Below are positions 1 through 27,593 of a stretch of 64,000 nucleotides of DNA, one piece after another; the first letter of the stretch is position 1; every line of letters begins with the position of its first letter. Origin of the DNA: a virus. The notes below the pieces were generated by a model. The model made no database searches and was not told the origin of the DNA. It worked only from the letters and a program-made list of their open reading frames with translations. A program made the position numbers and the translations under genes. The stretch lies in the IMG/VR virus record IMGVR_UViG_3300030688_000001. One strand, written 5' to 3'.

Positions 1-209
1 AACTTACCATTAAGAGCATCATACTCACCCCCAACGTCTACCAAATAATCAGCACCTATCCAATCAACAGGATCACGACTTCTTATTACCGTTACAGGGA
101 TCTCTTCAGAATAAAGTAGTTGAAGGGTGGCACAAGCAAATACTTCATCGGCGTGAAAAATTCCTGTATGGGTCACTATAGTTATTTTTTCAGTTTTTGG
201 CTCTTCCAT
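1..209 (-). CDS. MYG1 (UPF0160)-family metal-dependent hydrolase/exonuclease, N-terminal part (runs off the window edge)
   Basis: Manual translation from ATG at 209: MEEPKTEKITIVTHTGIFHADEVFACATL...IRSRDP...ADYLVDVGGEYD. This matches the MYG1 motifs THxGxFHADE and DVGGxYD. Not in the ORF track because it is truncated. Confidence 0.8.
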   Translation of the reverse strand, partial: MEEPKTEKITIVTHTGIFHADEVFACATLQLLYSEEIPVTVIRSRDPVDWIGADYLVDVGGEYDALNGK

Positions 210-212
210 AAA

Positions 213-746
213 TCAGATTTTGGTTTTGATAATGTGTTCAACCAGATTGATTAACTTCTTATACTGCTTACCAAACTTATTGTTTTTATGAGTCTTTTCT
301 ACTTTGTTTTTGAACTCAGTCAAATTTCCTGTAAAACAACCACAATCTACTTGAACATTCTTTCCTACCCAATAAATGGTAGTTTGAGCGTTTCTAGAAC
401 CAATTTTAGAAGAAGTAAATCTTTGTGGGTTAGATTTGAAACCAATACAAGTAATACAACTTATACAATCTCTACAATCTCTACAATAATTACAACTATT
501 ACAATCTCTACAATCATAGCAACCATTACAACCTTTACAATAAATACAATCATTGCAATATCTACAATTACTACAATTATTACAACTACTACAATTATCA
601 CACCAACCACAATCAATACAACTAGTACAACCGGTTAGGGTAGGTGAGTATAGAGTAGCTAATTCTTCTGATAACCAGCTATTATTGTTTTCGTCATACC
701 ATCTATTATATCTTTTTGTTATTTTCATAGTATTCAAAAGCTTCAT
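213..746 (-). CDS. CxxC-repeat protein, paralog 1, with a C-terminal GSRN..TT..CGCFxGxLxEF domain
   Basis: About 20 tandem CxxC units. N-terminus shared with 6632..7027 and 37975..38370. Probable start is ATG 728 (MKITKR). Confidence 0.75.
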   Translation of the reverse strand: MKLLNTMKITKRYNRWYDENNNSWLSEELATLYSPTLTGCTSCIDCGWCDNCSSCNNCSNCRYCNDCIYCKGCNGCYDCRDCNSCNYCRDCRDCISCITCIGFKSNPQRFTSSKIGSRNAQTTIYWVGKNVQVDCGCFTGNLTEFKNKVEKTHKNNKFGKQYKKLINLVEHIIKTKI

Positions 747-6631: not shown

Positions 6632-7027
6632 TTAGTGTTTTGTTAAATAGTTTACTAACATAAGTATCAAGGTTCCTCCAAGCAATACAAGAAATAGTTT
6701 TAAAACGAAATAAGGATATTTATTTCGGTCCTGTATAGAATTGACGTTATGATGATAATCTTTACGATCTCTACAATATGTACAACCACTACAATTATTA
6801 CAATCACTACAATGACCACAATAACTACAATCAATACAACTACTACAATTACTACAATAAGCACAACTACTACAACTACTACACCATCTACAATAACTAC
6901 AACTACTACAATCACTACAACATCTACAATTAGTTAGGGTAGGTGAGTGTAGAGTAGCTAGTTCTTCCGTATCCCAACTATTATCGTTTTTGTCATACCA
7001 TCTATTACCTCTTTTTGTTAGTTTCAT
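6632..7027 (-). CDS. CxxC-repeat protein, paralog 2, with C-terminal TM helix
   Basis: Shared N-terminus MKLTKRGNRWYD..NSW..EELATLHSPTLTNC; CxxC tract; hydrophobic tail. Confidence 0.75.
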   Translation of the reverse strand: MKLTKRGNRWYDKNDNSWDTEELATLHSPTLTNCRCCSDCSSCSYCRWCSSCSSCAYCSNCSSCIDCSYCGHCSDCNNCSGCTYCRDRKDYHHNVNSIQDRNKYPYFVLKLFLVLLGGTLILMLVNYLTKH

Positions 7028-13163: not shown

Positions 13164-14519
13164 TTATACATTAGCTAATTCACTCCTAACTTTATTTTGC
13201 ATCATTTTATTCTCATTATTCAAGTTGTCTATGTCTTTATTATGATAATGATTATAAGCACCTATAGCAGCTGTAGGGGCTCCAATAATACCACCAGCTA
13301 CTAGATATGGTTTTAAAGCTTCCCATCCCGTAGCAGGCTTAGAAGGTGCTACGGGTAAGCCAGGTTTAAAACTATCATTAATATTCTGTCCTATCTGCTT
13401 AATCTTTTGAACTGAGTTGGATTTGTCAAAGTTAATATTCTCAGCACCAGCACCTTCAATACCTTCAATAAGATTAGCTGGAGTCTTAAATACATTACTG
13501 CCTAATCGTGTTAATGCTTTTGGAAGAGTATCAAAGTTACCACTATTATCATTTTGTCTTTCAGCTATAGTCTCTGCACTACCTAATATAGCTGAAGGAA
13601 TCATTAAACTCTTGACTGGATTCCTAGTAATAAAATTGTTTAACAGAGTATTAGGATGATTTACATTCTTTTGTAATATGTTTAGAGGAACTGCATTATC
13701 TTTAGCATTACTTATCAGTTCTTGTAATTTATCAACTCCAATATTAGATGGTCGGTTTATATATTTTTTAAACAGAGGGTTGTCTACTATTCTATCCAAT
13801 ACTGATGCTTGTTTATGAGTAAGCATCTGTAATAAAGCATTTGTTCTTTCAGCTTCTTCTTTTCTATGCTTCCTAGTAATGGCATCATAAGCCATAACCG
13901 GGCCAGCAGAAAGAGCGGTAGCCCCTAATATGCTTTTAACTGGATGATTCGCCATATCTTGCATAGTACTAGAGAATATGCCTTTACCAAATTCCTTGCC
14001 TGCCTCATTATAAAGAGGACCCATTTTCTCATTAGCCTTGTCTATTAATGCTTCAGCAAATTCATTTCTAGTAGTAGGATTAGTTATATTAGATAGTGAA
14101 TCCAATACTTTCTGAGCATTAGGATTTTTATCTACACTATTTAATACACTATCAGAAGCAGAACCAAGAGCAGGACCAGCACCAGTAGCATTAAGTATTG
14201 CACTAGTTAGATGGCCTACTTGTCTACCAGTCCAAGGAGCACCACCCATTTCTAGATGACCGTGTAAAGCATTATTAATAGTCCTTCCACCTGATTCTAG
14301 AGTTGCTGAGGCTAACCCTGCTCCCAAACCTAGACCGGCAGCACCTTTCAAACCAGCTCTACTATAATCAAATATACGTCCTAATTGAGATAATACGTTA
14401 GCTTTCTTATCAATGAAATTAGTCAAAGCTTTAGTATTGGCATTCATATTACTCAAATGATAACTGCTCTTCCAGTTCTTCTGCAAATTTATGGGTCCCA
14501 AATCCTTTGGCATATGCAA
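13164..14519 (-). CDS. glycine-zipper membrane-type virion protein (putative ejection protein)
   Basis: Three blocks, each opened by KKA or KQA and carrying GxxxG-rich helices; probable start ATG 14447. Confidence 0.6.
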   Translation of the reverse strand: MHMPKDLGPINLQKNWKSSYHLSNMNANTKALTNFIDKKANVLSQLGRIFDYSRAGLKGAAGLGLGAGLASATLESGGRTINNALHGHLEMGGAPWTGRQVGHLTSAILNATGAGPALGSASDSVLNSVDKNPNAQKVLDSLSNITNPTTRNEFAEALIDKANEKMGPLYNEAGKEFGKGIFSSTMQDMANHPVKSILGATALSAGPVMAYDAITRKHRKEEAERTNALLQMLTHKQASVLDRIVDNPLFKKYINRPSNIGVDKLQELISNAKDNAVPLNILQKNVNHPNTLLNNFITRNPVKSLMIPSAILGSAETIAERQNDNSGNFDTLPKALTRLGSNVFKTPANLIEGIEGAGAENINFDKSNSVQKIKQIGQNINDSFKPGLPVAPSKPATGWEALKPYLVAGGIIGAPTAAIGAYNHYHNKDIDNLNNENKMMQNKVRSELANV

Positions 14520-16788
14520 GCCCTGGTATTGGAGATGGTCCCTCCAAACTACTAGAAGCTCCAGTATTGACAGCCTTTATTAATCTACGTTCCAGATTAG
14601 TACTATATAAGGTATGCATCCAGTCATGTTCATGTGCTGGGACATCTAATAATCTTTGCATTTCTGGTTCAAATTCAGGTTTTGTCTCATTTACCGTAAC
14701 ATAATCGATATTATGTTTCTTCAACTCATTAATTACAGTACTGGTGATTCTAGTTCCTATTGTATAGTGTAATTCAGGTATTTCCAAGTATAAACCTTGA
14801 GCCATATCAGTTCTGACCTTCTTACTATTAGTTCTAGGAGAATAGGCTTTCTCCAGTGTATGATAATTTACTATACTGTCTGGCAAGTTATTCCCTAAGC
14901 CTTTAGGATTGGTTATTTTAACATGAGTAATTAAACCTTTACTTATAATATCAAAATTACGTTTATTTATTCCACCTAATTGACTAGTTTCAAATGTATC
15001 TTTAATAGCTTTGGAGAAATACCTTCTACCTTCTCCAATACCTTTATGCTTTGTTATTTTAGCTGGATTAGGTATACCATCACTTAACACATCACCTTCT
15101 TCAACTAGCTGGCCTGATTTAACCAATACTTTCAAATCTGGGTGTACATAATATTCTTCAAGTTTTCCATTATCATGCTTAATAACTATATAATGACCTC
15201 CTTGTGGTGCTACTCTTACTTCTTCTATCTTACCATCAGAGTCAGCTATTGGGGCTTCATGGACAAATGAATCCGGGATATTAAATAATTGATTGATGTA
15301 TTTAAAGCCACCAAATTGATTAGAACCAGTTGCACTACCTCCCTTGTGCTTACTATTATGTACTATTAAGCCATTCGCTAATACAAATAAAGCATCTTTA
15401 CTATCTACTTCAATATCCCAACATTGTATTAATCCTAGATACTCTGGTTTATTGTATAGTACTACCCAATAATCATTTGTAGTAACTACATCTATAGTTT
15501 CATCAATATCTTTTAGAGGCATTTCTGTTAATACATTACTACATTCCAGGGTTTCACAAAGTATCTTATGATTCTCTGTAGCATATAGTTCAATTACTTT
15601 ATCTTTATTATCTATAAATATATATTTATTAACAGGTTGTAATCCTTGATTGAATAACCTTAGAACTTTGACTGGAGAGGTTTGACCAGCGTTATCAGAG
15701 CCAAGCACCATATCTCCGACCTTTATATCTTGAATAGCTTTAATAGAATAATCTGCCATTCTTACTAGTGTTCCTTCAGCTAAACAGTTTAACGCCCCTT
15801 GTGCTACTGGTTCTGCTGCTGAAGTACCGGCAACAACTCCAATAAAAGAATTAAGTTCAGACAAGCCTTTACCTCTGATACCCACACATAATTGACAAAG
15901 AGCACTAGAAGTTCCATCATGACTAGCTTCACAAGTTATAGGATTTCTAACTACAATCTCTTCTATGCCTTTGCTTTTTAGAATACCCAGCATACTAGAG
16001 GTAACTTCATTATTATAGTGATATTTGTCTATAGGATGAGCTAAGAACGAACCGATGTAATCATTATCATTTGTTTTTACAGGTATTCCATTATGAGTAC
16101 CACAATCATGTTCTTCTATCACCATTGTCATGTTTGCTCTAGCTAATTGCTTGCCTAAAAACCCACCTTCTGCCACTGATAATTTTGTGGCCGCGCTGGC
16201 TTGTCTCGCACCAAAAGTATGTGCCAAATATTGGGGCAAGGTTAATCCTTCAGCAAAAGATCTATCAATAATAAAATCAGTTAGAATACCGCCTTTATTA
16301 TCGTTAACGGCTACTGGGGAGAAAATAGTTTGACGATATTGTTCGGGACTCCCTCTCGCTCCGGCTTTAACTACCTTGGCTAGAGTCTTATTATCTTTAA
16401 GGCCTTCTTCTATTATTTCCTTATTTGCAGTGTCAGAAAACTTGTTGAGCAAATTTGTTAGTTCATCATCTTCTTTCTTTTTAGGTAACTTTTTATCCTT
16501 TATGCTCTTAATCTCTTTATTGAGTTCTTTAAATCTCTCATCTTTAAAGGAGGGTGGAAGCAAGTCACCTAGTCTGACAGTACTACCCAACCTAGTAGCT
16601 GATTCAAACCCAAGTCTAGTTAAATCTGATACTACTTTCTTATAACTATCTTCATTATGCTCTGCTAAATTAGAGAAGAAAGCACCTATATTCTTCTTAT
16701 CCAAATCTTTGCTTTCTATAAATGAATGAGAGTTAGCAGGAGAGTAATGCTTAAGCAGGATTTTGCCTACTGTTGTTACCTCAGACAT
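14449..16788 (-). CDS. rpoC: RNA polymerase beta-prime subunit, C-terminal part (bridge helix, trigger loop, Zn site), with mini-intein
   Basis: TTVGKILL, KAGARGS, SFAEGLTLPQY...GARQ...AEGGFLGKQL, EHDCGT, RNPITC...CQLCVG and AAEPVAQ|SKHKGG follow the order of conserved beta-prime blocks. Confidence 0.9.
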   Translation of the reverse strand: MSEVTTVGKILLKHYSPANSHSFIESKDLDKKNIGAFFSNLAEHNEDSYKKVVSDLTRLGFESATRLGSTVRLGDLLPPSFKDERFKELNKEIKSIKDKKLPKKKEDDELTNLLNKFSDTANKEIIEEGLKDNKTLAKVVKAGARGSPEQYRQTIFSPVAVNDNKGGILTDFIIDRSFAEGLTLPQYLAHTFGARQASAATKLSVAEGGFLGKQLARANMTMVIEEHDCGTHNGIPVKTNDNDYIGSFLAHPIDKYHYNNEVTSSMLGILKSKGIEEIVVRNPITCEASHDGTSSALCQLCVGIRGKGLSELNSFIGVVAGTSAAEPVAQGALNCLAEGTLVRMADYSIKAIQDIKVGDMVLGSDNAGQTSPVKVLRLFNQGLQPVNKYIFIDNKDKVIELYATENHKILCETLECSNVLTEMPLKDIDETIDVVTTNDYWVVLYNKPEYLGLIQCWDIEVDSKDALFVLANGLIVHNSKHKGGSATGSNQFGGFKYINQLFNIPDSFVHEAPIADSDGKIEEVRVAPQGGHYIVIKHDNGKLEEYYVHPDLKVLVKSGQLVEEGDVLSDGIPNPAKITKHKGIGEGRRYFSKAIKDTFETSQLGGINKRNFDIISKGLITHVKITNPKGLGNNLPDSIVNYHTLEKAYSPRTNSKKVRTDMAQGLYLEIPELHYTIGTRITSTVINELKKHNIDYVTVNETKPEFEPEMQRLLDVPAHEHDWMHTLYSTNLERRLIKAVNTGASSSLEGPSPIPGLAYAKGFGTHKFAEELEEQLSFE
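15355..15786 (-). mobile_element. 144-aa mini-intein in the RNAP trigger loop
   Basis: Starts CLAEGT; block B ATENHKI; ends WDIEVD...NGLIVHN followed by Ser; no LAGLIDADG motifs. Confidence 0.9.
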
Positions 16789-18166: not shown

Positions 18167-18816
18167 ATACCTAGACCTTGTTGGGGTTGGGCTGATTGTG
18201 CTGGTTGGGTTGGTTGTGCAGGATTACTACCATCCATCGGCCCACTACCATAAATACCTCCACCCATCATACCTTGTTGTTGCTGTTGTTGCATCATTTG
18301 TTCTTGTTGTTGCTTCTGCTGTTCTTCTCTCTGCTTCTGTTGCTCTTCCCTATGCATCTTAGCACGTTCATATTGATGCTTTTCTTTTAATTGTTCAGTC
18401 TTCAAATGACTCTGTGTTGCCTTCCCGCCACTATGTAAATCTAATAGATCAGCTACACTTAATGTAACTGTAGTATCTTTTAACCCTCTAGACTGTTGTT
18501 TTGGGGCTAAATCATCACTTTGTCCTGGTTGTGGCTGACCTCCCTGACTCAGATCTTGCTGAGGTTGACCCTGGCCTTCTTGTTGCATTCCTTGGCCTTG
18601 ACCCATTTGTTGAGCTAATTGAGCCATCTGTTGTGGGTCTGGTTGTTGACCTGATCCACCTTGACTTGGTTGTGGAGATTGTGAAGATTGTGGAGGTTGA
18701 GGTTGTTGCCCAGGTAAACCTCCTTGTTGTTGAGCAGCAGTACTATTAGGTGATGGTATAAATGCTTGTTTATGCATCATACTACCTATTTCTTCTAAGA
18801 TTTGTCTGTAAGTCAT
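18163..18816 (-). CDS. Gln/Pro-rich low-complexity protein
   Basis: HKQA near the N-terminus; polyQ tracts. Confidence 0.65.
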   Translation of the reverse strand: MTYRQILEEIGSMMHKQAFIPSPNSTAAQQQGGLPGQQPQPPQSSQSPQPSQGGSGQQPDPQQMAQLAQQMGQGQGMQQEGQGQPQQDLSQGGQPQPGQSDDLAPKQQSRGLKDTTVTLSVADLLDLHSGGKATQSHLKTEQLKEKHQYERAKMHREEQQKQREEQQKQQQEQMMQQQQQQGMMGGGIYGSGPMDGSNPAQPTQPAQSAQPQQGLGI

Positions 18817-18879
18817 ATTAAAATTGGTATTATCTCTATTTCAAAGTTCTATCTATTATGGAGATTGATGGTAGTTATA

Positions 18880-19101
18880 TTAATGATACTTTTGTAATAG
18901 TTTCTCACTTTCCCAGGCCACAGCTTCATCAATAATAAATTCTTCCAAGGATTTTTTAACATTAGCTAATCTACCTTGGTCTATTCTACCCTTTAATTTA
19001 CTTTTAGGCAAATCAATATCTCTTAGTTGAGTTAGAGCTTCTATCAACTTATCTAATTTCTGTTGTTCGTTCAATACTAACCATACATCTCTAGTTATCA
19101 T
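18880..19101 (-). CDS. hypothetical protein
   Basis: 73-aa ORF in the operon. Confidence 0.55.
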   Translation of the reverse strand: MITRDVWLVLNEQQKLDKLIEALTQLRDIDLPKSKLKGRIDQGRLANVKKSLEEFIIDEAVAWESEKLLQKYH

Positions 19102-19117
19102 ATAAGGTCTTCTTCTT

Positions 19118-20839
19118 TCATTTCTCTATTTCTATGTTGTCTCCTGGCTCTAAATCACCTCTGTTATATGCAGCAACTACTTCTTGTTCAGTTTTATATT
19201 TTTTAGGAGTGTTATGTTTGTTTTCTGTACTTAGTCCATAAAGGCCCAAAGCTGCTTCATTACTAGGGATTAATACAGGTTGAAAAGATTTAACAGATAA
19301 TAAATTTTTGCTAGGCATCATTTTAGCTATAACTTCTTTACGTGCTTCTTCAGTGCCTGGAATATGGACATTAAGTTGGTCTCCGTCGGAATTTTTTGTA
19401 TATCCTCCTATAGTTAAGAAACTTCCGTAGTTTGGTATTTCCAAATCGTAAGCAGTATTAGATTGTAACTTAGTTACTCTTTTAACTTTCTTCCATTTTA
19501 AACTACCATTATACACCTTACCTAAATATGATATCCATTGTTCATTATTCTTTAACTCAACTAGAAGTATTTCAATTATTTCTTTTAAAGTGCTTTTACG
19601 AAATCTATCTGTTTTAAATTCCTGGCTTAATCTATATTTTAAATTATAAAGTTCCTTATTCTTTTGTAATTTATATTTATTATTAATAGCTGTAATTATA
19701 TTTTTTTTAACAGTTTCTGAAGGAAGTGGTACTAAGTCATTAAAGTTATCACCTATACCTGTTATATCTTTTAAGCTATTCTCTAATTTTTCCTTCTTCA
19801 ACTCATGACTTATTCTAAATTTTGTTCTTTCAACTAACTTTTTAAATGTCCCAGTATGAAATCTGAAGGAGAAATTATCTTTACTACTCAGCCTAGATGC
19901 CCCTTTATATACTCCATAATTTAAATTTAACCGTTTACTCATATATCTTAAACCGTTAATTAAATGAATTGATGATGTGCAGATACTTATATTTATAACT
20001 GTTTTATTAGAAGAACTGACACTTACTGTTCCATCAGTTGAGATTAACCCATCTAATATACCTAGTAGATGTTCTTCAGGACCGTTTAAACTAAAAGTAG
20101 GTATTTTCTTATTAAAAGCTCCACTCCCTATCTGCTCTTTTAACCACTTATTAAACCAGGCACAAGAAGCTCTAGTTTTACCTCTAGAAGTAAATTGCCC
20201 CATCATATTCTCACTAACTCTATCTATTTCTTTAACTCCATTTTCATAAGGAAGATATTCACTATTACATAAATCAGCAAATACTTTTCTATTCATTAAT
20301 TTTTCTTTGGTAGAACCGGCTAAGAAAAGTTGATTAGCATTATCTACCCAACCATCACCTAAAACCATTCCTATAAAAAGTCCGGTTTTATAATTAAGTT
20401 GCAAGTTAAATGAATTTTTAACAAATCCTTTTCCTCGTATTCCTTTCATTCCTCTAGTACCCATCATACCTTCAGCTAATACACTTGATTGAATATTGGG
20501 TGCTATAGTTGTAACATCACTAGGACAATACCTACCTACTGCCTCTTCGGTATCAACTTCTTCAATACCACTATCAGTATAAGCTAATAAACTATGATCT
20601 TTGGCTGCAAATATAAAATCCCCATCTATAAATTGTACCAAATATAAAGGTACATTAGGATGAATCGAGAATGTCTTTGGATTTACCCAATCTACTTCAC
20701 CAGTTATAAGGTTTAATGATTTTACTTCTACATTACTAGGTACATCATAAAGGATATTACCATTTATAGTAGTAGTGGCTGAATTTTCTATTCTAGGGAA
20801 ATCTGAAATAGGTACTAGTGTATATTTATAATTAATCAT
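19118..20839 (-). CDS. rpoC: C-terminal intein fragment (483 aa, with LAGLIDADG endonuclease) fused to a 90-aa RNAP beta-prime segment beginning SDGDQLNVH
   Basis: Block B AKDHSL; IGMVLGDG and LDGLISTDG motifs; block F AYDLEI; terminal Asn at 19391. The extein matches beta-prime DGDQMAVHVP..EA....M...N.L....P...PS.....GLY. Confidence 0.9.
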   Translation of the reverse strand: MINYKYTLVPISDFPRIENSATTTINGNILYDVPSNVEVKSLNLITGEVDWVNPKTFSIHPNVPLYLVQFIDGDFIFAAKDHSLLAYTDSGIEEVDTEEAVGRYCPSDVTTIAPNIQSSVLAEGMMGTRGMKGIRGKGFVKNSFNLQLNYKTGLFIGMVLGDGWVDNANQLFLAGSTKEKLMNRKVFADLCNSEYLPYENGVKEIDRVSENMMGQFTSRGKTRASCAWFNKWLKEQIGSGAFNKKIPTFSLNGPEEHLLGILDGLISTDGTVSVSSSNKTVINISICTSSIHLINGLRYMSKRLNLNYGVYKGASRLSSKDNFSFRFHTGTFKKLVERTKFRISHELKKEKLENSLKDITGIGDNFNDLVPLPSETVKKNIITAINNKYKLQKNKELYNLKYRLSQEFKTDRFRKSTLKEIIEILLVELKNNEQWISYLGKVYNGSLKWKKVKRVTKLQSNTAYDLEIPNYGSFLTIGGYTKNSDGDQLNVHIPGTEEARKEVIAKMMPSKNLLSVKSFQPVLIPSNEAALGLYGLSTENKHNTPKKYKTEQEVVAAYNRGDLEPGDNIEIEK

Positions 20840-20845
20840 ATAGAC

Positions 20846-20874
20846 ACAATACGGTGACTAGTTGAACTTGTCAA
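20846..20874 (-). promoter_or_regulatory. sigma70-type promoter for a leaderless IntC-rpoC transcript
   Basis: TTGACA (20874-20869), 17 nt, TATTGT (20851-20846), 6 nt, then ATG at 20839. The upstream TGA stop lies inside the -35 box. Confidence 0.7.
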
Positions 20875-23666
20875 TTAATTTTCTCTCTATAAATAATATA
20901 ATCTACAATACTATCCGCACCATACCCCTTAAATACTAATGGATTCATTTTAATAGTTTTATCTTTAGAATTTGGATTAGCAATTAAATTAAACCCTAAT
21001 AGATTATATTTATGCCAGGCTGGATCTCGCGTTATAATACCAGGTCTTACTGCCATCTCTTCCTTTAATGCCATAACTGCTAATGGACTATGTTTTTTAA
21101 CATAATCAACCGCACTAATAGCTGGTACACCCTTCATAACCAACCTTCTAATAACAAAAGGTTTATATATCTGCCACAGCATATCTTGAGGTACACTAGC
21201 CTGGTCTACATCCAATCTAGTATCTGGAGTTAACACAGCTCTTCCCACCAAATCCAGACTCTTATTAACCACCTTACTCTGAAACATTGTACTTTTAGCC
21301 GTTCCACCCTTTAATCCAAACATAGTAGCTAATATACCTTTAACATTCTTATCCTGGTGTTTCTTATTAATTGGATCACCCAAACCAAAGGCAGCTTTTA
21401 CTCCATCATATTCATTTTGTTTTAATTTCCTAACTACTTCGTCCGGCACATTCTCAGTATTTTTAAGTGCATTGTTATTTAGTATGAGGTCTTTATATAG
21501 ATTATTAACATCACTAGTTAATACTACATCACCCATCTTACTAGCAGGTCTGTATTGGGCTGGTAGAATAGGTACTTTATGCAACATCAAATCTTTAGGA
21601 TGTAACTTATGTTCTTTTAGTGTAGTGAGAAATTCTAACAATTTAACGGCATCATCTCTTCTAGTCTTCTTCTCACTACCTATATACTTCTTCATTTCTT
21701 CTATCTTCTTATCCAGATCTATATTATTAAGGGCTTTTTCCATTTCCCCATCCACTACCATATCATTAAACTTAAACTTGGTAACTCCTAACAACTTTCT
21801 GAGATAATCCTCACTAATAGGATTAGGTATGGGATGATTAAGATTTATGTGATTAAACTTGTCACCTAATATGCCTATTATATTAGGATCAAATAGTCCG
21901 CCAGGTTCATGTATTAGTTCTTCTTGATGTGGCTTGAATAATGAAGGTTTCTTAATTTCACCATTACTCAAAGCAGTAGTATCCTTATCTGTTAAAGGTA
22001 GGATATTAAAGGTATTACCAACTCTATCTACATTAATACCGGCAGCTTTTAAACTATCTATGAACTTGTTAAAGATGAATGGAACTTTAGGGCTGGGTGG
22101 GGTTTGGCCCAATTTAATAGCACGCCAGAATTCATCATTCTGAGTACCTTTAACAGTACCTATATCCTCCAATACATGTCTGACATCATGACTTAGCAAA
22201 GCTGTAGTACCTAAATTTCCTATTCTCTTTGATGAACCACCTTCCACTGCTGACTTACTTGGTTGCCGGTCGAAACTGTATCCGGACCCCTGACTTCTAG
22301 TACTTAGTTTATCTTCACTAATATGAGTTAACCTACTATAGAATAATGGACCTACAACTGCTTCAATATTTCTACCAGTAATTGGATCATATAGTTGTTC
22401 AGTATCATTTATATTATTCTTCTTTAATACATTAATTACATTCTTAATAGATGAATCCTTTCTAAACTGATCCATTTTAATAGTCTTACCAGTCTTCTCA
22501 GCTAATTTACCAAGGCCTAGAGTTATGGCTAAGGCTGGTGCAACTCTTGACGTGATGGACATGGAGTTAAGCATGATATCAACTGGCTTCCCATTAGGTA
22601 GTAGTGGAGCTTGTGAGTCTGATACAATCTTCGTTACACCCTTAGCTCCAAAGTAATTAGAAATCTTATCACCAGGTAATAGACTTCTTACCGTCTTGAT
22701 ATGTACTGTAATAAGTGGGCCATGTTTGGTTACATCCACTACTTCTCCATCATGTTCGTAGTCCCAGGCTTCTGAATTATCTTTGAATGCATGTTTTAAT
22801 ACTTTACTCAGCTTACCTAATGCCAAATCTGTACTCTTTAATGCTCTGGGTGAGTAAGCCAGGATTACCGGGTCTCCAGCTTTCAATCTAGACCCTACTA
22901 TAACCACTCCATCTGAATCTATATTTTTAATTTGATTATTCGTATATTTATTAGGAAATAGTGCTACAAATTTATCCTTGCCTGCCTCTACTCCAAATTT
23001 CTCTTCAATACTAAAATTGATCATTTGTTCTGCTGCCAACTTTTTAGCACCACTTTCAGTCACTGCAAAAGCATCCTCAAAGTTGTCTGAGCGGTACGGG
23101 ATTATAGCAGTAGTAAGGTTAGTTCCCATCGCCATATTACCTTCTTTATCATTATAATTACTGTAAGCTATTACTTCATTAGTTTTAACTTTATCACCAA
23201 CCTTCACTTTAGGGGTATGAGTAATAAAGCTTTTCCTGCCTAAATGAAAGTTATTATATAGTTGATAGGTAGACTTGGTTTTATCTGTATTATCTACTTT
23301 AATATGATTTTCAGTAACTTCAGTAACAGTACCAGGTTTAGTTGCAGTTACAGATAAATAATGTTTACCATATAGTTCTTGAGTACTTTCTTTGTTAGTG
23401 TCATCTGAACTTTCTACTAACGGACGTTCAGGATTTACTAAAGGTATAGCTTGGAGAGAAGCCTTGGCTCCTAGTAACACACGCCCGCCGGAAACTGAAT
23501 TTAGCCCAGTAATCATGTTAGTAGGTAAAGCAAATAAATCCCTACTCGAAGGCATGGATATATGATCTTCATTTAGTTTGTCCACCTTCTCAAAATTTCC
23601 CTTATTAAGTACAGTATAACTCATATTTTGATTATATACTCTTATTATTGATTTCCACAACCTCAA
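20871..23666 (-). CDS. rpoB: fused RNAP beta C-terminal / beta-prime N-terminal subunit ending in a 13-aa N-intein
   Basis: Beta blocks GRVLLGAKASLQAIP, YRSDNFEDA, GDKISNYFGAKGV and RLTHISEDKLSTRS. Beta-prime blocks GGLFDP, PILPAQYRP, SDVNNLY, DLVGRAVL, RDPAWH and GYGAD, followed by SIVDYIIYREKIN*. Probable start ATG 23624. Confidence 0.9.
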   Translation of the reverse strand: MRLWKSIIRVYNQNMSYTVLNKGNFEKVDKLNEDHISMPSSRDLFALPTNMITGLNSVSGGRVLLGAKASLQAIPLVNPERPLVESSDDTNKESTQELYGKHYLSVTATKPGTVTEVTENHIKVDNTDKTKSTYQLYNNFHLGRKSFITHTPKVKVGDKVKTNEVIAYSNYNDKEGNMAMGTNLTTAIIPYRSDNFEDAFAVTESGAKKLAAEQMINFSIEEKFGVEAGKDKFVALFPNKYTNNQIKNIDSDGVVIVGSRLKAGDPVILAYSPRALKSTDLALGKLSKVLKHAFKDNSEAWDYEHDGEVVDVTKHGPLITVHIKTVRSLLPGDKISNYFGAKGVTKIVSDSQAPLLPNGKPVDIMLNSMSITSRVAPALAITLGLGKLAEKTGKTIKMDQFRKDSSIKNVINVLKKNNINDTEQLYDPITGRNIEAVVGPLFYSRLTHISEDKLSTRSQGSGYSFDRQPSKSAVEGGSSKRIGNLGTTALLSHDVRHVLEDIGTVKGTQNDEFWRAIKLGQTPPSPKVPFIFNKFIDSLKAAGINVDRVGNTFNILPLTDKDTTALSNGEIKKPSLFKPHQEELIHEPGGLFDPNIIGILGDKFNHINLNHPIPNPISEDYLRKLLGVTKFKFNDMVVDGEMEKALNNIDLDKKIEEMKKYIGSEKKTRRDDAVKLLEFLTTLKEHKLHPKDLMLHKVPILPAQYRPASKMGDVVLTSDVNNLYKDLILNNNALKNTENVPDEVVRKLKQNEYDGVKAAFGLGDPINKKHQDKNVKGILATMFGLKGGTAKSTMFQSKVVNKSLDLVGRAVLTPDTRLDVDQASVPQDMLWQIYKPFVIRRLVMKGVPAISAVDYVKKHSPLAVMALKEEMAVRPGIITRDPAWHKYNLLGFNLIANPNSKDKTIKMNPLVFKGYGADSIVDYIIYREKIN

Positions 23667-23715
23667 ACTTTAGTCTTTAATTAACCTGGAATATACATTA
23701 AACTAGGTTAGATTT

Positions 23716-24066
23716 ATGAAGAGTTGGATTATTATTGTATTTAGCTTGATTAGTATTAGTATTGAAGCACAACAATTAAATAAAGTCTATCTAAATCACT
23801 TATTAGACGCTATTTATCTAGCTGAGGGTGGGGCTAATACTAAATATCCTTATGGAGTGATTGGAGATTTTAAAAAGAGTCCAAGAATTATAGCTGCCAA
23901 TACTATAAAACATAATTACAATAACTGGTTAAATAGTAGTTCTAAAACAGATTTCTTAAGATATCTACAACAACACTATTGTCCTATAAATGCTAAAAAT
24001 GACCCTAATCATTTAAATGATAACTGGTATAAGAATGTATCTTTAATAATGAAACAGTATGAATAA
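23716..24066 (+). CDS. small secreted lysozyme/glucosaminidase-like protein
   Basis: Signal-like N-terminus; AIYLAEGG and YCPINAKNDPNHLNDNWYKNV resemble lysozyme-superfamily cell-wall hydrolases. Confidence 0.45.
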   Translation: MKSWIIIVFSLISISIEAQQLNKVYLNHLLDAIYLAEGGANTKYPYGVIGDFKKSPRIIAANTIKHNYNNWLNSSSKTDFLRYLQQHYCPINAKNDPNHLNDNWYKNVSLIMKQYE

Positions 24067-24736
24067 GTTAGATGCATTTATTAATGGTTTTATCAAGGCT
24101 GCTGGCCCACTCCCTCCACCTCCTCCACCTCCTACACCTCCTACACCTCCAAAAATTCCGATGATTTCATTACCACACAATGCTTATACTGTTGGTGGTC
24201 TCCCTCCAAATATGCATAATTTTGTTAATAAAGGTGGTAATACCCTTAATATAAATGCTCACGGTGGTCCTGATAGTGCTATTAATGGAGAATATGCATT
24301 TCAAAGTGATTCTAATAATTCTAAAAACTTGCTTTATAACAATGAACCACTAACTTATACTCCTCAAACATTGGCTAAACTTATTGGTCCAGCTACTAAC
24401 AATATCAATAATATTTATACTACTGCTTGTAATGGTGGGGATTGCTCCAATACTAATGTGAGTCCAAACGAAGTGCTTAAAGGGTTTGCTACTCCAGCTA
24501 TGTACCGTAAATTATTCCCTAATCTTACTAACGTTGTTCAAATCCCTCCCAGGCATTATGGTCCATTAATTCCAAGTCAATTTAAGACTAATGAATACCC
24601 AGACGTAGTGAATATAATAAATAGAATTATTAAAGATAGGAATCCTAATGATCCAATAACTACAAGCTTGCCTCATCAATATAATCTACAAGGTGGTACT
24701 AATTGGGTGGATAAAGGGACTTACTATAATTACTGA
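24059..24736 (+). CDS. FINGFIKAA-leader protein with Pro-rich linker and possible clan CD cysteine-peptidase domain
   Basis: LNINAHGG and IYTTACNGG resemble the His-Gly / Ala-Cys dyad. Confidence 0.5.
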   Translation: MNKLDAFINGFIKAAGPLPPPPPPPTPPTPPKIPMISLPHNAYTVGGLPPNMHNFVNKGGNTLNINAHGGPDSAINGEYAFQSDSNNSKNLLYNNEPLTYTPQTLAKLIGPATNNINNIYTTACNGGDCSNTNVSPNEVLKGFATPAMYRKLFPNLTNVVQIPPRHYGPLIPSQFKTNEYPDVVNIINRIIKDRNPNDPITTSLPHQYNLQGGTNWVDKGTYYNY

Positions 24737-27593
24737 TATGACAGACCGACACAATGTATATGTAGTTGAATTGGATAAGGAGGTCTTAGCTAAAAAAAAG
24801 TTTTTAAAGTTGAATCCTAACTACAATCCAGAACTACCTCCACTTTATGTAGGAGAGACTGGTTTGAGTCCTGAAGCTAGATTCGAGAAACATAAAACTG
24901 GACTAAAAGCCAATATCTGGGTAAAGAATCATGGGCTTAGACTTAGGCCTGAACATTATAAAGATTTAAATCCCATGCCATTTCATAAAGCTGAAAGAAC
25001 CGAGGAATGGTTGGCAAAGAAGTTAAGGGCTGAGGGTTATCCAGTAGTAGGTGGGAATCCTAGAACCGTACCTTTGAAGAAGGAGGCTGGTGAAGAAGCG
25101 TTACAACCTCAACAAGCTAGAGTAATTAAGAAGATTCAAGATAAGAATACTTCAGGGTTAGTGCTTTATCATGGGATGGGTAGTGGAAAAGGATTGGTTA
25201 TAGGCTCAAAGATATTAACACCTACAGGGTGGATAAATATAGAAGATATAAAACAAAACACAGAAGTGATTTCTGTTAATGGTGTGAAAGCTAATGTGAC
25301 TGGAGTCTATCCTCAAGGGTATAAAGATGTGTATAAAATTACTTTTAGGGATGGTGCTACTATAGAATGTGATGATTCTCATTTATGGTTCACTCAATCT
25401 AGATGTGAACGTAAAAATTACGTTAAAAGCAAGGATCAATTTAAATATAGGTGGGTAGGTAAAGTCAGGAGTACAAGCGAAATTAAAGATACAGTATTAT
25501 CTAATGATAATAGTTTAAATTATACTATTCCTATTGTGAAACCTATTCATTTTAAATATAGAAAACTTCCACTAGACCCGTATTTTGTTGGTTTGATTTT
25601 AGGAGATGGTAGTATTTGTGGAGGTGGCTGTGCGATAACAACAGCAGATGACGAAATTCTGCAATCAATTAAGTCTTTATTTCCAAATTTTACTCTTAAA
25701 AAATATTCTAAATATACTTATGGATTAGGTAAACCAAAAGGATATAACAGTTACATTGTTCAAGCATTTAAAGAATTAAAATTACAAGGTATGAATTGTT
25801 TTACAAAATTTATACCTGATATTTATATGTTTAACACAGTGAAATCTCGCATAGCATTATTACAAGGGTTAATGGATACTGATGGTACTGTAAGTAAAGA
25901 TGGTATGGCTATAGTTTATGAGTCCGTCTCAAAACAGTTAGCAGATGGTGTGCAATTCCTTGTTGAATCACTAGGAGGTTTAGCAAAGATAACAACTAGA
26001 ATTCCAACATATTCATATAAAGGAGAAAAAAAGAAAGGAGCTTTATGTTATAGGGTTTGGTTAAGTTTACCACCAAATATCAATCCATTTAGATTACACA
26101 GAAAAGCAATTCAAGTAATTCCTAAGACTAAATATAAACCAACTAGATATATAAAAAGTATAGAATATGTTGGAAAAAAAGAGACAATCTGTATTGCAAT
26201 CGATGACCCTTCTCATCTATATATTACTGAACATTGTATAGTTACGCACAATACACGCGAAAGTATTGAATCCTGGAAAGCATTAGGATTACCTAAGACT
26301 GATATCATTGTTCCAGCTTCATTAAAATCCAACTATCGTAAAGAGTTGCAGAGATGGTATGGCAATTCTAATCCTTCTAATATCAACTTAATTAGTCAAC
26401 AAAGATTTGCTAATTCTAAGTTAAATACTCCAATATACAATACTGGTTTGCAGATAGTAGATGAAGCTCAAAAAGCTAAAAATAGTAATAGTGAATTATA
26501 TCAAGCATTGGTTAAAACGAATCCAGCCAAGCGCCTTCTCCTTTCAGGAACTCCAATTCTAAATGATCCTACTGAATTAAGTAATCTTGTTAACTTAGTA
26601 GCAAAGAAACAAGTATTACCTAATAATTTATCTGAGTTTAAAAAACAATATTTTAAACAGGAAGAAGTTAAACCTGGATTTTTTGGTAGATTAATGGGAG
26701 TTTCTCCAGGCATTCAATATAAGCTACAGAATAAAGCTCAACTATCTAAGATTCTGGATAAGTATGTTGACTACTATAAACCTACTCAAGAAGGATATCC
26801 TACTGTGACGGAGCAAGAAGTTAATGTTCCTATGGGTGCTAAACAACAAGAGATATATGATACAATACTCGGAAAGACACCATTTTGGACACGTTATCGA
26901 ATTAAACATAATTTACCTCCTGGACGTGGTGAATTAGAAGGTATGCGAGCATTTTTAAGTGGACCTAGACAAGTAAGCAATTCAACTGCTGGATTTACTA
27001 AAAATTTAAGAGACGTGGAATCCCCTAAAATAGATGCAGCTTTTAAGTTTTTACAAATACAATTAAAACAAGATCCAAACTATAAAGCTCTAGTATATAG
27101 TAATTATCTTAATAATGGTCTTAGACCTTATGAATCATTATTAAGAAAGAATAATATACCATTTGGAGAGTTTAGTGGAGCTGTAACACCTACTATAAGA
27201 GACCAGGCAGTTAAAGATTATAATGCTAATAAATTAAGAGCATTATTAGTATCAGGAGCTGGGGCTGAAGGATTGGATTTGAAGGCTACAAATTTGACAC
27301 AACTTTTGGAACCTTTTTGGAACCTTCCTAAAGAGAGACAAGTTATCGGAAGATCAGTACGTTTCCATAGTCATGATAGTTTGCCTCCAGAAAAGAGAAA
27401 GGTTTTAGTGCAACGTTATTTTGCCACACCAAAACCTAGTTTATTGGATAAACTTACATTCAATCCCAAACCTACTGGTACAGATTCATATATTAGAAAT
27501 TCAATCAGTAAACCAAAAGATAATCTTAATCAAGAAATAACTAATTTAATAGCCAAGAATCAAGAACCTAAATCTTGGCTTAACTACAATTAA
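24693..27593 (+). CDS. GIY-YIG-like domain fused to SNF2/SF2 helicase, intein-containing
   Basis: NVYVVEL, LYVGETG and RFEKH motifs; Walker A HGMGSGK|T; IVDEAQ; LLSGTP; GAGAEGLDL; QVIGRSVR. Probable start ATG 24738. Confidence 0.85.
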   Translation: MVLIGWIKGLTIITDMTDRHNVYVVELDKEVLAKKKFLKLNPNYNPELPPLYVGETGLSPEARFEKHKTGLKANIWVKNHGLRLRPEHYKDLNPMPFHKAERTEEWLAKKLRAEGYPVVGGNPRTVPLKKEAGEEALQPQQARVIKKIQDKNTSGLVLYHGMGSGKGLVIGSKILTPTGWINIEDIKQNTEVISVNGVKANVTGVYPQGYKDVYKITFRDGATIECDDSHLWFTQSRCERKNYVKSKDQFKYRWVGKVRSTSEIKDTVLSNDNSLNYTIPIVKPIHFKYRKLPLDPYFVGLILGDGSICGGGCAITTADDEILQSIKSLFPNFTLKKYSKYTYGLGKPKGYNSYIVQAFKELKLQGMNCFTKFIPDIYMFNTVKSRIALLQGLMDTDGTVSKDGMAIVYESVSKQLADGVQFLVESLGGLAKITTRIPTYSYKGEKKKGALCYRVWLSLPPNINPFRLHRKAIQVIPKTKYKPTRYIKSIEYVGKKETICIAIDDPSHLYITEHCIVTHNTRESIESWKALGLPKTDIIVPASLKSNYRKELQRWYGNSNPSNINLISQQRFANSKLNTPIYNTGLQIVDEAQKAKNSNSELYQALVKTNPAKRLLLSGTPILNDPTELSNLVNLVAKKQVLPNNLSEFKKQYFKQEEVKPGFFGRLMGVSPGIQYKLQNKAQLSKILDKYVDYYKPTQEGYPTVTEQEVNVPMGAKQQEIYDTILGKTPFWTRYRIKHNLPPGRGELEGMRAFLSGPRQVSNSTAGFTKNLRDVESPKIDAAFKFLQIQLKQDPNYKALVYSNYLNNGLRPYESLLRKNNIPFGEFSGAVTPTIRDQAVKDYNANKLRALLVSGAGAEGLDLKATNLTQLLEPFWNLPKERQVIGRSVRFHSHDSLPPEKRKVLVQRYFATPKPSLLDKLTFNPKPTGTDSYIRNSISKPKDNLNQEITNLIAKNQEPKSWLNYN
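25191..26252 (+). mobile_element. 354-aa class 3 intein with LAGLIDADG endonuclease, inserted in Walker A
   Basis: Starts with Gly (GLVIGS). WCT triplet: HLW in block B, ICIAID in block F, VTHN in block G. +1 residue Thr. GLILGDG and QGLMDTDG motifs. Confidence 0.88.

Follow-up and report, generated by a model that had tools for sequence, protein, structure and literature searches.

How can an RNA polymerase (RNAP) be completed when the residues of its catalytic centre are encoded in two separate genes? This question is raised by a locus in the IMG/VR virus record IMGVR_UViG_3300030688_000001, of which we analyzed a stretch of 64,000 nucleotides (nt), hereafter called the window; all coordinates refer to it. 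The source is a peat-soil jumbo phage encoding its own multisubunit RNAP. An intein lies within the catalytic DxDGD loop of this enzyme and is broken into two open reading frames (ORFs), both of which are read on the minus strand. Judging from sequence comparison and structure modelling, we consider it likely that the two fragments form an atypical, naturally split intein of the S1 type, which would trans-splice to complete the active site of the polymerase.

The locus had first been described in an initial annotation made from the DNA letters, and re-reading of the sequence agreed with its outline: a beta/beta' fusion gene ends in GYGAD, a short intein start and a stop codon, and the next gene, in the +1 frame, carries a 483-amino-acid (aa) intein remainder (Table 1). 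The first gene (N gene, 23624-20871; called product P0004, 917 aa) matched the Pfam families RNA_pol_Rpb2_6, Rpb1_1 and Rpb1_2, and its N-extein terminates in ..NPLVFKGYGAD, the final residue being the first Asp of DxDGD. The second gene (C gene, 20839-19118) encodes a 573-aa ORF (P0002) starting with an ATG at 20839, and a TAG is located in its frame 18 nt upstream of this ATG. Its C-extein represents the end of the beta'-N subunit and could be aligned both with NADFDGDQMAVHVP in beta' of solved RNAPs and with the C-terminal end of Salmonella phage Arash gp206. The smaller elements described in that annotation were also recovered on the minus strand: removal of the 43 nt bracketed by a 7-nt repeat gives a continuous frame (..REKIN-YKYTL..), and a promoter scan placed TTGACA, a 17-nt spacer, TATTGT and, after six bases, the ATG at the same coordinates.

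Table 1. Features of the split polymerase locus; IntN and IntC are the N- and C-terminal intein fragments
Feature	Position	Strand	Description
N-extein	20913..23624	-	RNAP beta C-terminal half and beta' N-terminal part, fused; 904 codons; from Pfam and orthologues
IntN	20874..20912	-	13 codons, SIVDYIIYREKIN; predicted first beta-hairpin of the intein, Ser1 nucleophile; aligned to the start of the P0128 intein
TGA stop of N gene	20871..20873	-	Inside TTGACA
Spacer	20840..20870	-	31 nt; part of TTGACA (20874-20869), TCACCGTAT (20857-20849), TATTGT (20851-20846)
IntC	19391..20839	-	483 codons, ends ..GGYTKN; Pfam LAGLIDADG_3 and Intein_splicing; alignments A2, A3
IntC, Hint N-part	residues about 1-125		Conserved H60; block B H82
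IntC, LAGLIDADG endonuclease	residues about 140-350	-	Motifs at 20380-20345 and 20068-20030
IntC, variable helical region	residues about 351-445
IntC, Hint C-part			Block F D465, terminal N483
C-extein	19118..19390	-	SDGDQLNVHIP..., 90 codons and stop; S484 at 19390; second and third catalytic Asp
ATTAATT copies	20879-20873 and 20836-20830	-	Bracket 43 nt; copies 43 nt apart

That the insert is an intein was indicated by comparison with homologous phage loci, in which both intein-less and unbroken alleles were found. The loop is uninterrupted in over 100 orthologues of about 990 aa, where it reads GADNDGDQLN, and the exteins of the window, when joined, give the counterpart GADSDGDQLN; the distant Arash gp206 has AADYDGD and ends about 90 aa later. 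The insertion site directly follows the first Asp of DxDGD and precedes the x position, and the residue at +1 is Ser only in intein-bearing alleles. The proposal of an intein within the DxDGD loop, broken into two genes, is thus borne out by the extein logic and the intein-less orthologues. The unbroken allele, P0128 (L009, 1436 aa), contains a homologous intein at exactly the same site (GAD/SILGVVKVYEQGEGKFVNIADVP...Q/SDGDQ, slashes marking the junctions), and its alignment puts the break in the loop leading from the hairpin to the next strand, which is the S1 position; across the wider family this loop measures 20-42 residues. The structure prediction pointed in the same direction. The AlphaFold model of IntC had a predicted local distance difference test score (pLDDT) of 86.8, and its best PDB matches (Foldseek) were the TliVMA intein (E 5e-17), PI-PfuI, PI-TkoII and PI-SceI; both the profile search and the fold used residues 1-477, with the last six (GGYTKN) left out. 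Because the insert is absent from orthologues, has an unbroken homologue and matches known inteins in fold, it appears to be a bifunctional intein that is broken after its first beta-hairpin.

The same break was identified in three lineages: the window, L003 (P0009/P0124; seen in two European Nucleotide Archive (ENA) samples, ERZ18630589 and ERZ1426849) and ERZ1426851 (P0010/P0126). In L003 (75% extein identity), GAD/STIDYIVYREKLTS is followed by TAA and a 24-nt gap, after which the C gene starts with MNNYKYT.. and its intein ends in ..QKN/SDGDQ. In ERZ1426851 (72% extein identity), GAD/SVIDHIIYREKLTS is followed by a 24-nt gap, the C gene starts with MNTYKYT.. and the intein ends in ..TCN/SDGDN. 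IntN comprises 13 aa in the window and 14 aa in both other lineages, and in all three the ATG of the C gene lies three codons before YKYT. IntC identity ranges from 55 to 61% and extein identity from 72 to 75%. The two ORFs are in the +1 relation in the window (31-nt gap) and in frame 0 in L003 (24-nt gap, a single TAA between them). Since the frame relation differs between lineages, two separate polypeptides are indicated rather than one read-through product.

The residues required for splicing were largely conserved. Ser1, N483 and Ser+1 (S484) are invariant in the three split lineages, as are H60 and H82 (block B), and D465 (block F) is invariant in 16 family members. On the basis of motifs, acidic residues and fold, all of which are present, IntC also carries a predicted homing endonuclease: both LAGLIDADG motifs, LFIGMVLGDGWV and LLGILDGLISTDG, are invariant in the three lineages, Pfam LAGLIDADG_3 scored 32.8 bits (cutoff 22.5), and the fold of this part matched I-DmoI, I-SceI and others (Foldseek). 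In the comparison between the window and L003, the proportion of synonymous differences (pS) was 0.66-0.97, that is, saturated, in every partition of at least 37 codons, and 0.42 over the 13 codons of IntN, whereas that of nonsynonymous differences (pN) amounted to 0.17 for the exteins and to 0.22-0.30 for Hint parts and endonuclease (partition labels being shifted by six codons at the border of intein and C-extein). None of the three lineages has a disrupted C-gene ORF (560-573 codons). Judged from these substitution patterns, purifying selection acts on the exteins, the Hint core and the endonuclease alike.

Further occurrences of the split were sought in several collections. Megablast of the locus against GenBank phages gave no match, nor did scans of IMG/VR with the N protein, the IntC alignment and the spacer pattern, and a scan of JGI (Joint Genome Institute) metagenomes yielded mostly intein-less C-exteins and no further split allele. 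A search of 1.8 billion proteins returned 510-600-aa 'IntC-like' proteins; three of several were checked and none was split, P0136 and P0276 being truncated at contig edges and P0154 being a call from an internal ATG.

Whether the two fragments could recognize each other was addressed by a complex model of P0002 (IntC and C-extein) with residues 882-931 of the N protein. The model scored 0.81, the best of three controls scoring 0.14; of the solved complexes, 51 of 78 attained the score mark used, as did 2 of 108 mismatched pairs. Residues 915-930 of P0001 (IntN and the junction) made up one side of the confidently predicted interface; the other side consisted of IntC residues 2-15, 36-40, 65-77, 458-464 and 474-477, corresponding to the Hint core and the C-terminal splice strand. 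The complex model supports docking of the fragments, not splicing. The reaction proposed is as follows. Gene 1 would give a beta-C/beta'-N product ending in GAD plus the 13-aa IntN, which corresponds to the initial beta-hairpin of Hint. From gene 2, 31 nt further on, would come the 483-aa IntC (the rest of Hint with the embedded LAGLIDADG endonuclease), followed by SDGD and the subunit's final 86 residues. The 13-aa strand would dock into the incomplete Hint domain, Ser1 and Ser+1 would perform class-1 oxyester splicing, N483 would cyclise, and extein ligation would produce a continuous subunit reading GADSDGD. If the exteins were not ligated, the polymerase would have no intact catalytic loop. 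No second D.DGD motif was found elsewhere in the 64-kb window.

Several points weigh against this reading. The search for a second catalytic subunit covered 64 kb of a genome of roughly 218 kb. In the complex model, the partner's own pLDDT was about 48-50, so that its fold is uncertain, and the model may owe its high score in part to solved inteins memorised by the predictor. The Thr of block B varies among the split alleles, and the penultimate His of block G is absent, being replaced by Lys in the window and L003 and by Cys in P0126. Inteins lacking this His are known, and its absence is not disqualifying. The spacer DNA covers two of the three lineages. Finally, it should be noted that what the analysis shows is anatomy, conservation, selection and a modelled docking, and from these we infer both splicing itself and the role of the spacer signals. 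Even so, the initial annotation had offered either trans-splicing through a 13-aa IntN or ribosomal bypass from AAT to AAT, and the first of these stood as the best explanation, given the break in three lineages, purifying selection, the catalytic residues and the complex model; the second did not, as described below.

One rival explanation, itself very improbable, is that the locus is decaying, with intein and subunit inactivated, the ORFs mere remnants and transcription carried out by another enzyme. A stop inside an intein does resemble early decay, the missing penultimate His would fit, and the search for a second catalytic subunit covered 64 kb of the genome. Against this, three lineages at saturated synonymous divergence keep both ORFs intact, the splice residues are kept, the exteins are as conserved as in intein-less orthologues (pN 0.17), and strain variants maintain the break too; moreover, many peat samples contain the phage in abundance, and sequences of the locus occur in metatranscriptome libraries. 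Because ORFs of this length and extein conservation have been retained across such divergence, the locus does not appear to be dead.

It is very improbable that the fragments associate without splicing, the intein halves serving only to clamp the parts of the catalytic loop to each other non-covalently. The docking model, which speaks for association only, and the lack of the penultimate His would both be compatible with such a clamp. A clamp would need none of Ser1, the terminal Asn, Ser+1, the block B His and the block F Asp, however, and all of them are kept in three lineages. In addition, alignment with solved RNAPs suggests that an intein of ~500 aa would sit in the Mg-binding loop, deep in the active-site cleft, which is hard to reconcile with catalysis.

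Recoding followed by cis-splicing, for example a bypass like that of T4 gene 60 from the AAT before the TGA to an AAT 43 nt on, appeared highly improbable. In the window, and there only, the arrangement resembles gene 60: the stop directly follows a take-off codon that recurs downstream (about 45 nt), and a small stem can be drawn around the stop. However, AAT is a frequent codon in DNA of 36% GC content (guanine plus cytosine), so that a chance match is likely, and the window hairpin folds no better than shuffled sequences (z -0.9). L003 has no matched codon beside its TAA, no hairpin (z +1.6) and no ATTAATT repeat, and its gap is 24 nt in frame, compared with 31 nt and +1 in the window. The ATG three codons ahead of YKYT is conserved in three lineages, and a simple +1 shift is excluded by the TAG 18 nt before this ATG. 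Thus, with hairpin, matched codons, repeat, gap length and frame all unlike in the relative, the proposed bypass over a hairpin was rejected as a conserved mechanism.

An assembly or sequencing artefact, in which the 43 nt would be missing from the real genome, is refuted, since the junction is identical in independent JGI, ENA (L004 and L005) and Logan assemblies, is unchanged in a strain variant (L047 and L048) with 29 single-nucleotide polymorphisms (SNPs) over both genes, lies in a stretch present in full in 14 peat-metagenome DNA runs, is spanned without indel by one contig of a metatranscriptome library (20805-21144), and has an equivalent in diverged relatives. In the assembly collection, 67 blocks include the N protein, the contigs concerned being up to 218 kb long. 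Pieces of both genes were found at 100% identity in four metatranscriptome libraries, where carry-over of DNA is possible; these RNA-library data consist of contigs only, so that transcript ends and levels cannot be read from them.

The signals for starting the second gene are probably located in the spacer. Alignment A1 of the window and L003 conserves TTGAC-N12-TCACCGTAT..TGTC..ATG, the arrangement being TTGACA-17-TATTGT-6-ATG in the window and TTGACT-17-TATATT-7-ATG in L003. At 62-67%, the DNA identity of the spacer to L003 is no different from the mean of the locus (66%), and the spacer is therefore not an outlier. A single 10/12 sigma-70-like match was not above chance (47 found, 67 expected). 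The composite pattern TTGAC-N17-19-TAxxxT-N4-9-ATG, defined post hoc after two cases had been seen, occurred six times in the window compared with 0.99 +/- 1.03 times in shuffles (maximum 4 in 100), and all six matches precede an ORF of at least 50 codons; it was not enriched in 202 kb of related loci. No Rfam RNA family was found in 18500-24000. None of 36 ORF starts in the window is preceded by a Shine-Dalgarno motif, the leaders being A-rich, and its absence at the C gene is uninformative for this reason; by the same token, the host may not use TTGACA/TATAAT promoters at all. A sigma-type promoter is conceivable because homologues of this polymerase are found in the Arash virion along with a protein that carries a sigma-factor annotation (PMC10585845). 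Taken together, the sequence gives an internal promoter before the IntC gene roughly even odds or a little below, the spacer is possibly a promoter for a leaderless transcript, and a switch acting on RNAP activity, as initially suggested, is speculation.

Two further observations concern the spacer region. The composite pattern was also found directly ahead of the ORF starts at 6778, 27844, 46676, 53682 and 60727, and these five sites may represent a class of promoters for leaderless transcripts. Two contigs, each from a different metatranscriptome run, end inside the spacer, at 20854 and 20855, and a contig of a third run spans the site; these ends may be a coincidence or an RNA end, contig ends being unreliable.

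With regard to the origin of the split, the best explanation is that it arose in place from a contiguous intein and has been kept for long. From residue 1 to the (D/N)(F/V)P motif there are 20 residues in P0128, 25 in the window (counting IntN and the first residues of IntC) and, for the wider family, about 42; given this variation, the break lies in an insertion-tolerant loop. The claim of a discrete 43-nt inserted element with a target-site duplication was not supported: no other copy was found in the window or in IMG/VR, and the spacer itself has no copy elsewhere in the window. ATTAATT is a common 7-mer, with 29 occurrences in the window compared with even more in shuffles. In a tree of N-exteins, the three split alleles fell into one 10-member clade (support 100/98) together with seven alleles lacking the intein, and monophyly of the three was marginally rejected (approximately unbiased test, p 0.028). 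A single origin with repeated precise loss and spread by homing cannot be told apart. As a separate observation, 27 of the 29 strain SNPs (L047/L048) lie upstream of 21237 and the 1.5-kb intein has one; the SNP-poor intein with about 350 nt of upstream extein suggests a recombination tract, as homing with co-conversion would leave. A reading in which the locus still moves as a functional element and acts as a regulator as well is unlikely; here IntN, spacer and the endonuclease-bearing IntC would home jointly into intein-less alleles of relatives co-infecting the same cell, and a leaderless IntC/C-extein transcript from an internal promoter in the spacer would time completion of the catalytic centre independently of the synthesis of the large subunit.

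Other inserts were observed in the window and among related polymerases. The beta'-C subunit (14449-16788, minus strand, 779 aa, Rpb1_5) has Hint/Hom_end_hint matches at residues about 329-420, which suggests a mini-intein; the Rpb1_5 gene downstream in L003 has only 634 aa and may lack it. A SNF2-family helicase (24693-27593, plus strand, 966 aa) contains a LAGLIDADG_3/Hom_end insert at about residues 374-458, the third intein within 13 kb, and L004 and L005 are alike in this respect. Other phage RNAPs (P0129-P0140 and some 170 further proteins) harbour a large family of homologous inteins, also with an endonuclease, at a site four residues further downstream (DFDGD/S...D/TxNVHV); many of these inteins appear to end in Asp, not Asn, and some of their host proteins have 2000-3700 aa. 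In an unrelated phage contig (L007:3017-3403), a 385-nt stop-rich gap between an ORF ending in ..KLGADHF.. and a frame reading ..NPFDGD/CC.. plus an intein looks like a group I intron beside the catalytic motif. P0008, P0036 and P0059 (1328-1337 aa) have an uninterrupted GADNDGD and about 340 extra residues elsewhere in the N-extein, probably another intein site. P0012 (960 aa) has no intein and reads GGDCDGD, with a Cys at the x position that could have been left behind by a Cys+1 intein since lost. The GC content of the window is 36%, and all metagenomes in which it occurs are from peat or permafrost; we infer a Bacteroidota-like host.

The significance of the locus becomes clear by comparison with known systems. 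Full-text searches, with partial coverage of the literature, did not retrieve any account of an intein at NADFDGD or in the multisubunit RNAP of a jumbo phage. If trans-splicing takes place, this would be, within the literature searched, the first multisubunit RNAP found whose Mg-binding Asp triad is assembled in this way and, to our knowledge, the first natural split intein in which a conserved homing endonuclease has been retained in the long fragment. It would also bear on how split inteins originate, pointing to a break in an insertion-tolerant loop and not to endonuclease loss. Ser1/Ser+1 chemistry, if confirmed here, is sought for protein semisynthesis and labelling under oxidising conditions, and three diverged natural variants are available for comparison.

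Among atypical split inteins, VidaL, AceL-TerL and GOS-TerL are mini-inteins and are not known to carry an endonuclease. They resemble the phage intein in having a short IntN and a long IntC in separate ORFs of viral-type genes, and they are likewise metagenomic (PMC13014065, PMC11766414); VidaL is also split at S1. VidaL and AceL-TerL differ in using Cys1, and GOS-TerL combines Ser1 with Cys+1. Another close comparison is PolB16 OarG, a natural, atypically split intein of a PolB-type DNA polymerase from a sheep-gut metagenome (PMC10189870, PMC13014065). Both share an S1 split after the first beta-hairpin, a very short IntN and Ser1/Ser+1 oxyester chemistry, predicted in our case, and the extra His upstream of block B in PolB16 OarG (NX motif) has a candidate counterpart in the invariant H60. 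Unlike in PolB16 OarG, H60 is preceded by Ile/Val and not by the Arg/Lys of the NX motif, the host protein is the catalytic loop of RNAP beta', IntC has a complete LAGLIDADG endonuclease and several non-catalytic cysteines, and IntN has 13 aa (14 in the relatives) instead of 15. Natural atypical IntN lengths range from 15 to 37 aa (PolB16 OarG, 15, 'record-short'; VidaL, 16; AceL-TerL, 25; GOS-TerL, 37) (PMC13014065, PMC10189870, PMC11766414), so that a natural 13-aa IntN, if functional, would be shorter than the 15-aa 'record' (PMC13014065). Such a length is compatible with trans-splicing, which is carried out by natural S1 IntN of 15-16 aa and by engineered ones of 11 aa (PMC13014065, PMC10189870, PMC11766414). 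In the engineered S1 inteins (Ssp DnaB/DnaX S1 and M86), 11 aa suffice (PMC11766414, PMC13014065); unlike the phage intein, they are artificial, derived from mini-inteins and use Cys1. TliVMA, PI-PfuI, PI-TkoII and PI-SceI also have a Hint fold with an inserted LAGLIDADG endonuclease, and PI-TkoII shares Ser1 (PMC10189870). These inteins are contiguous, whereas in the phage the first 13 residues are on another polypeptide. A further difference, from the known atypical split inteins, is that the two genes of the phage locus are adjacent, with 24-31 nt between them.

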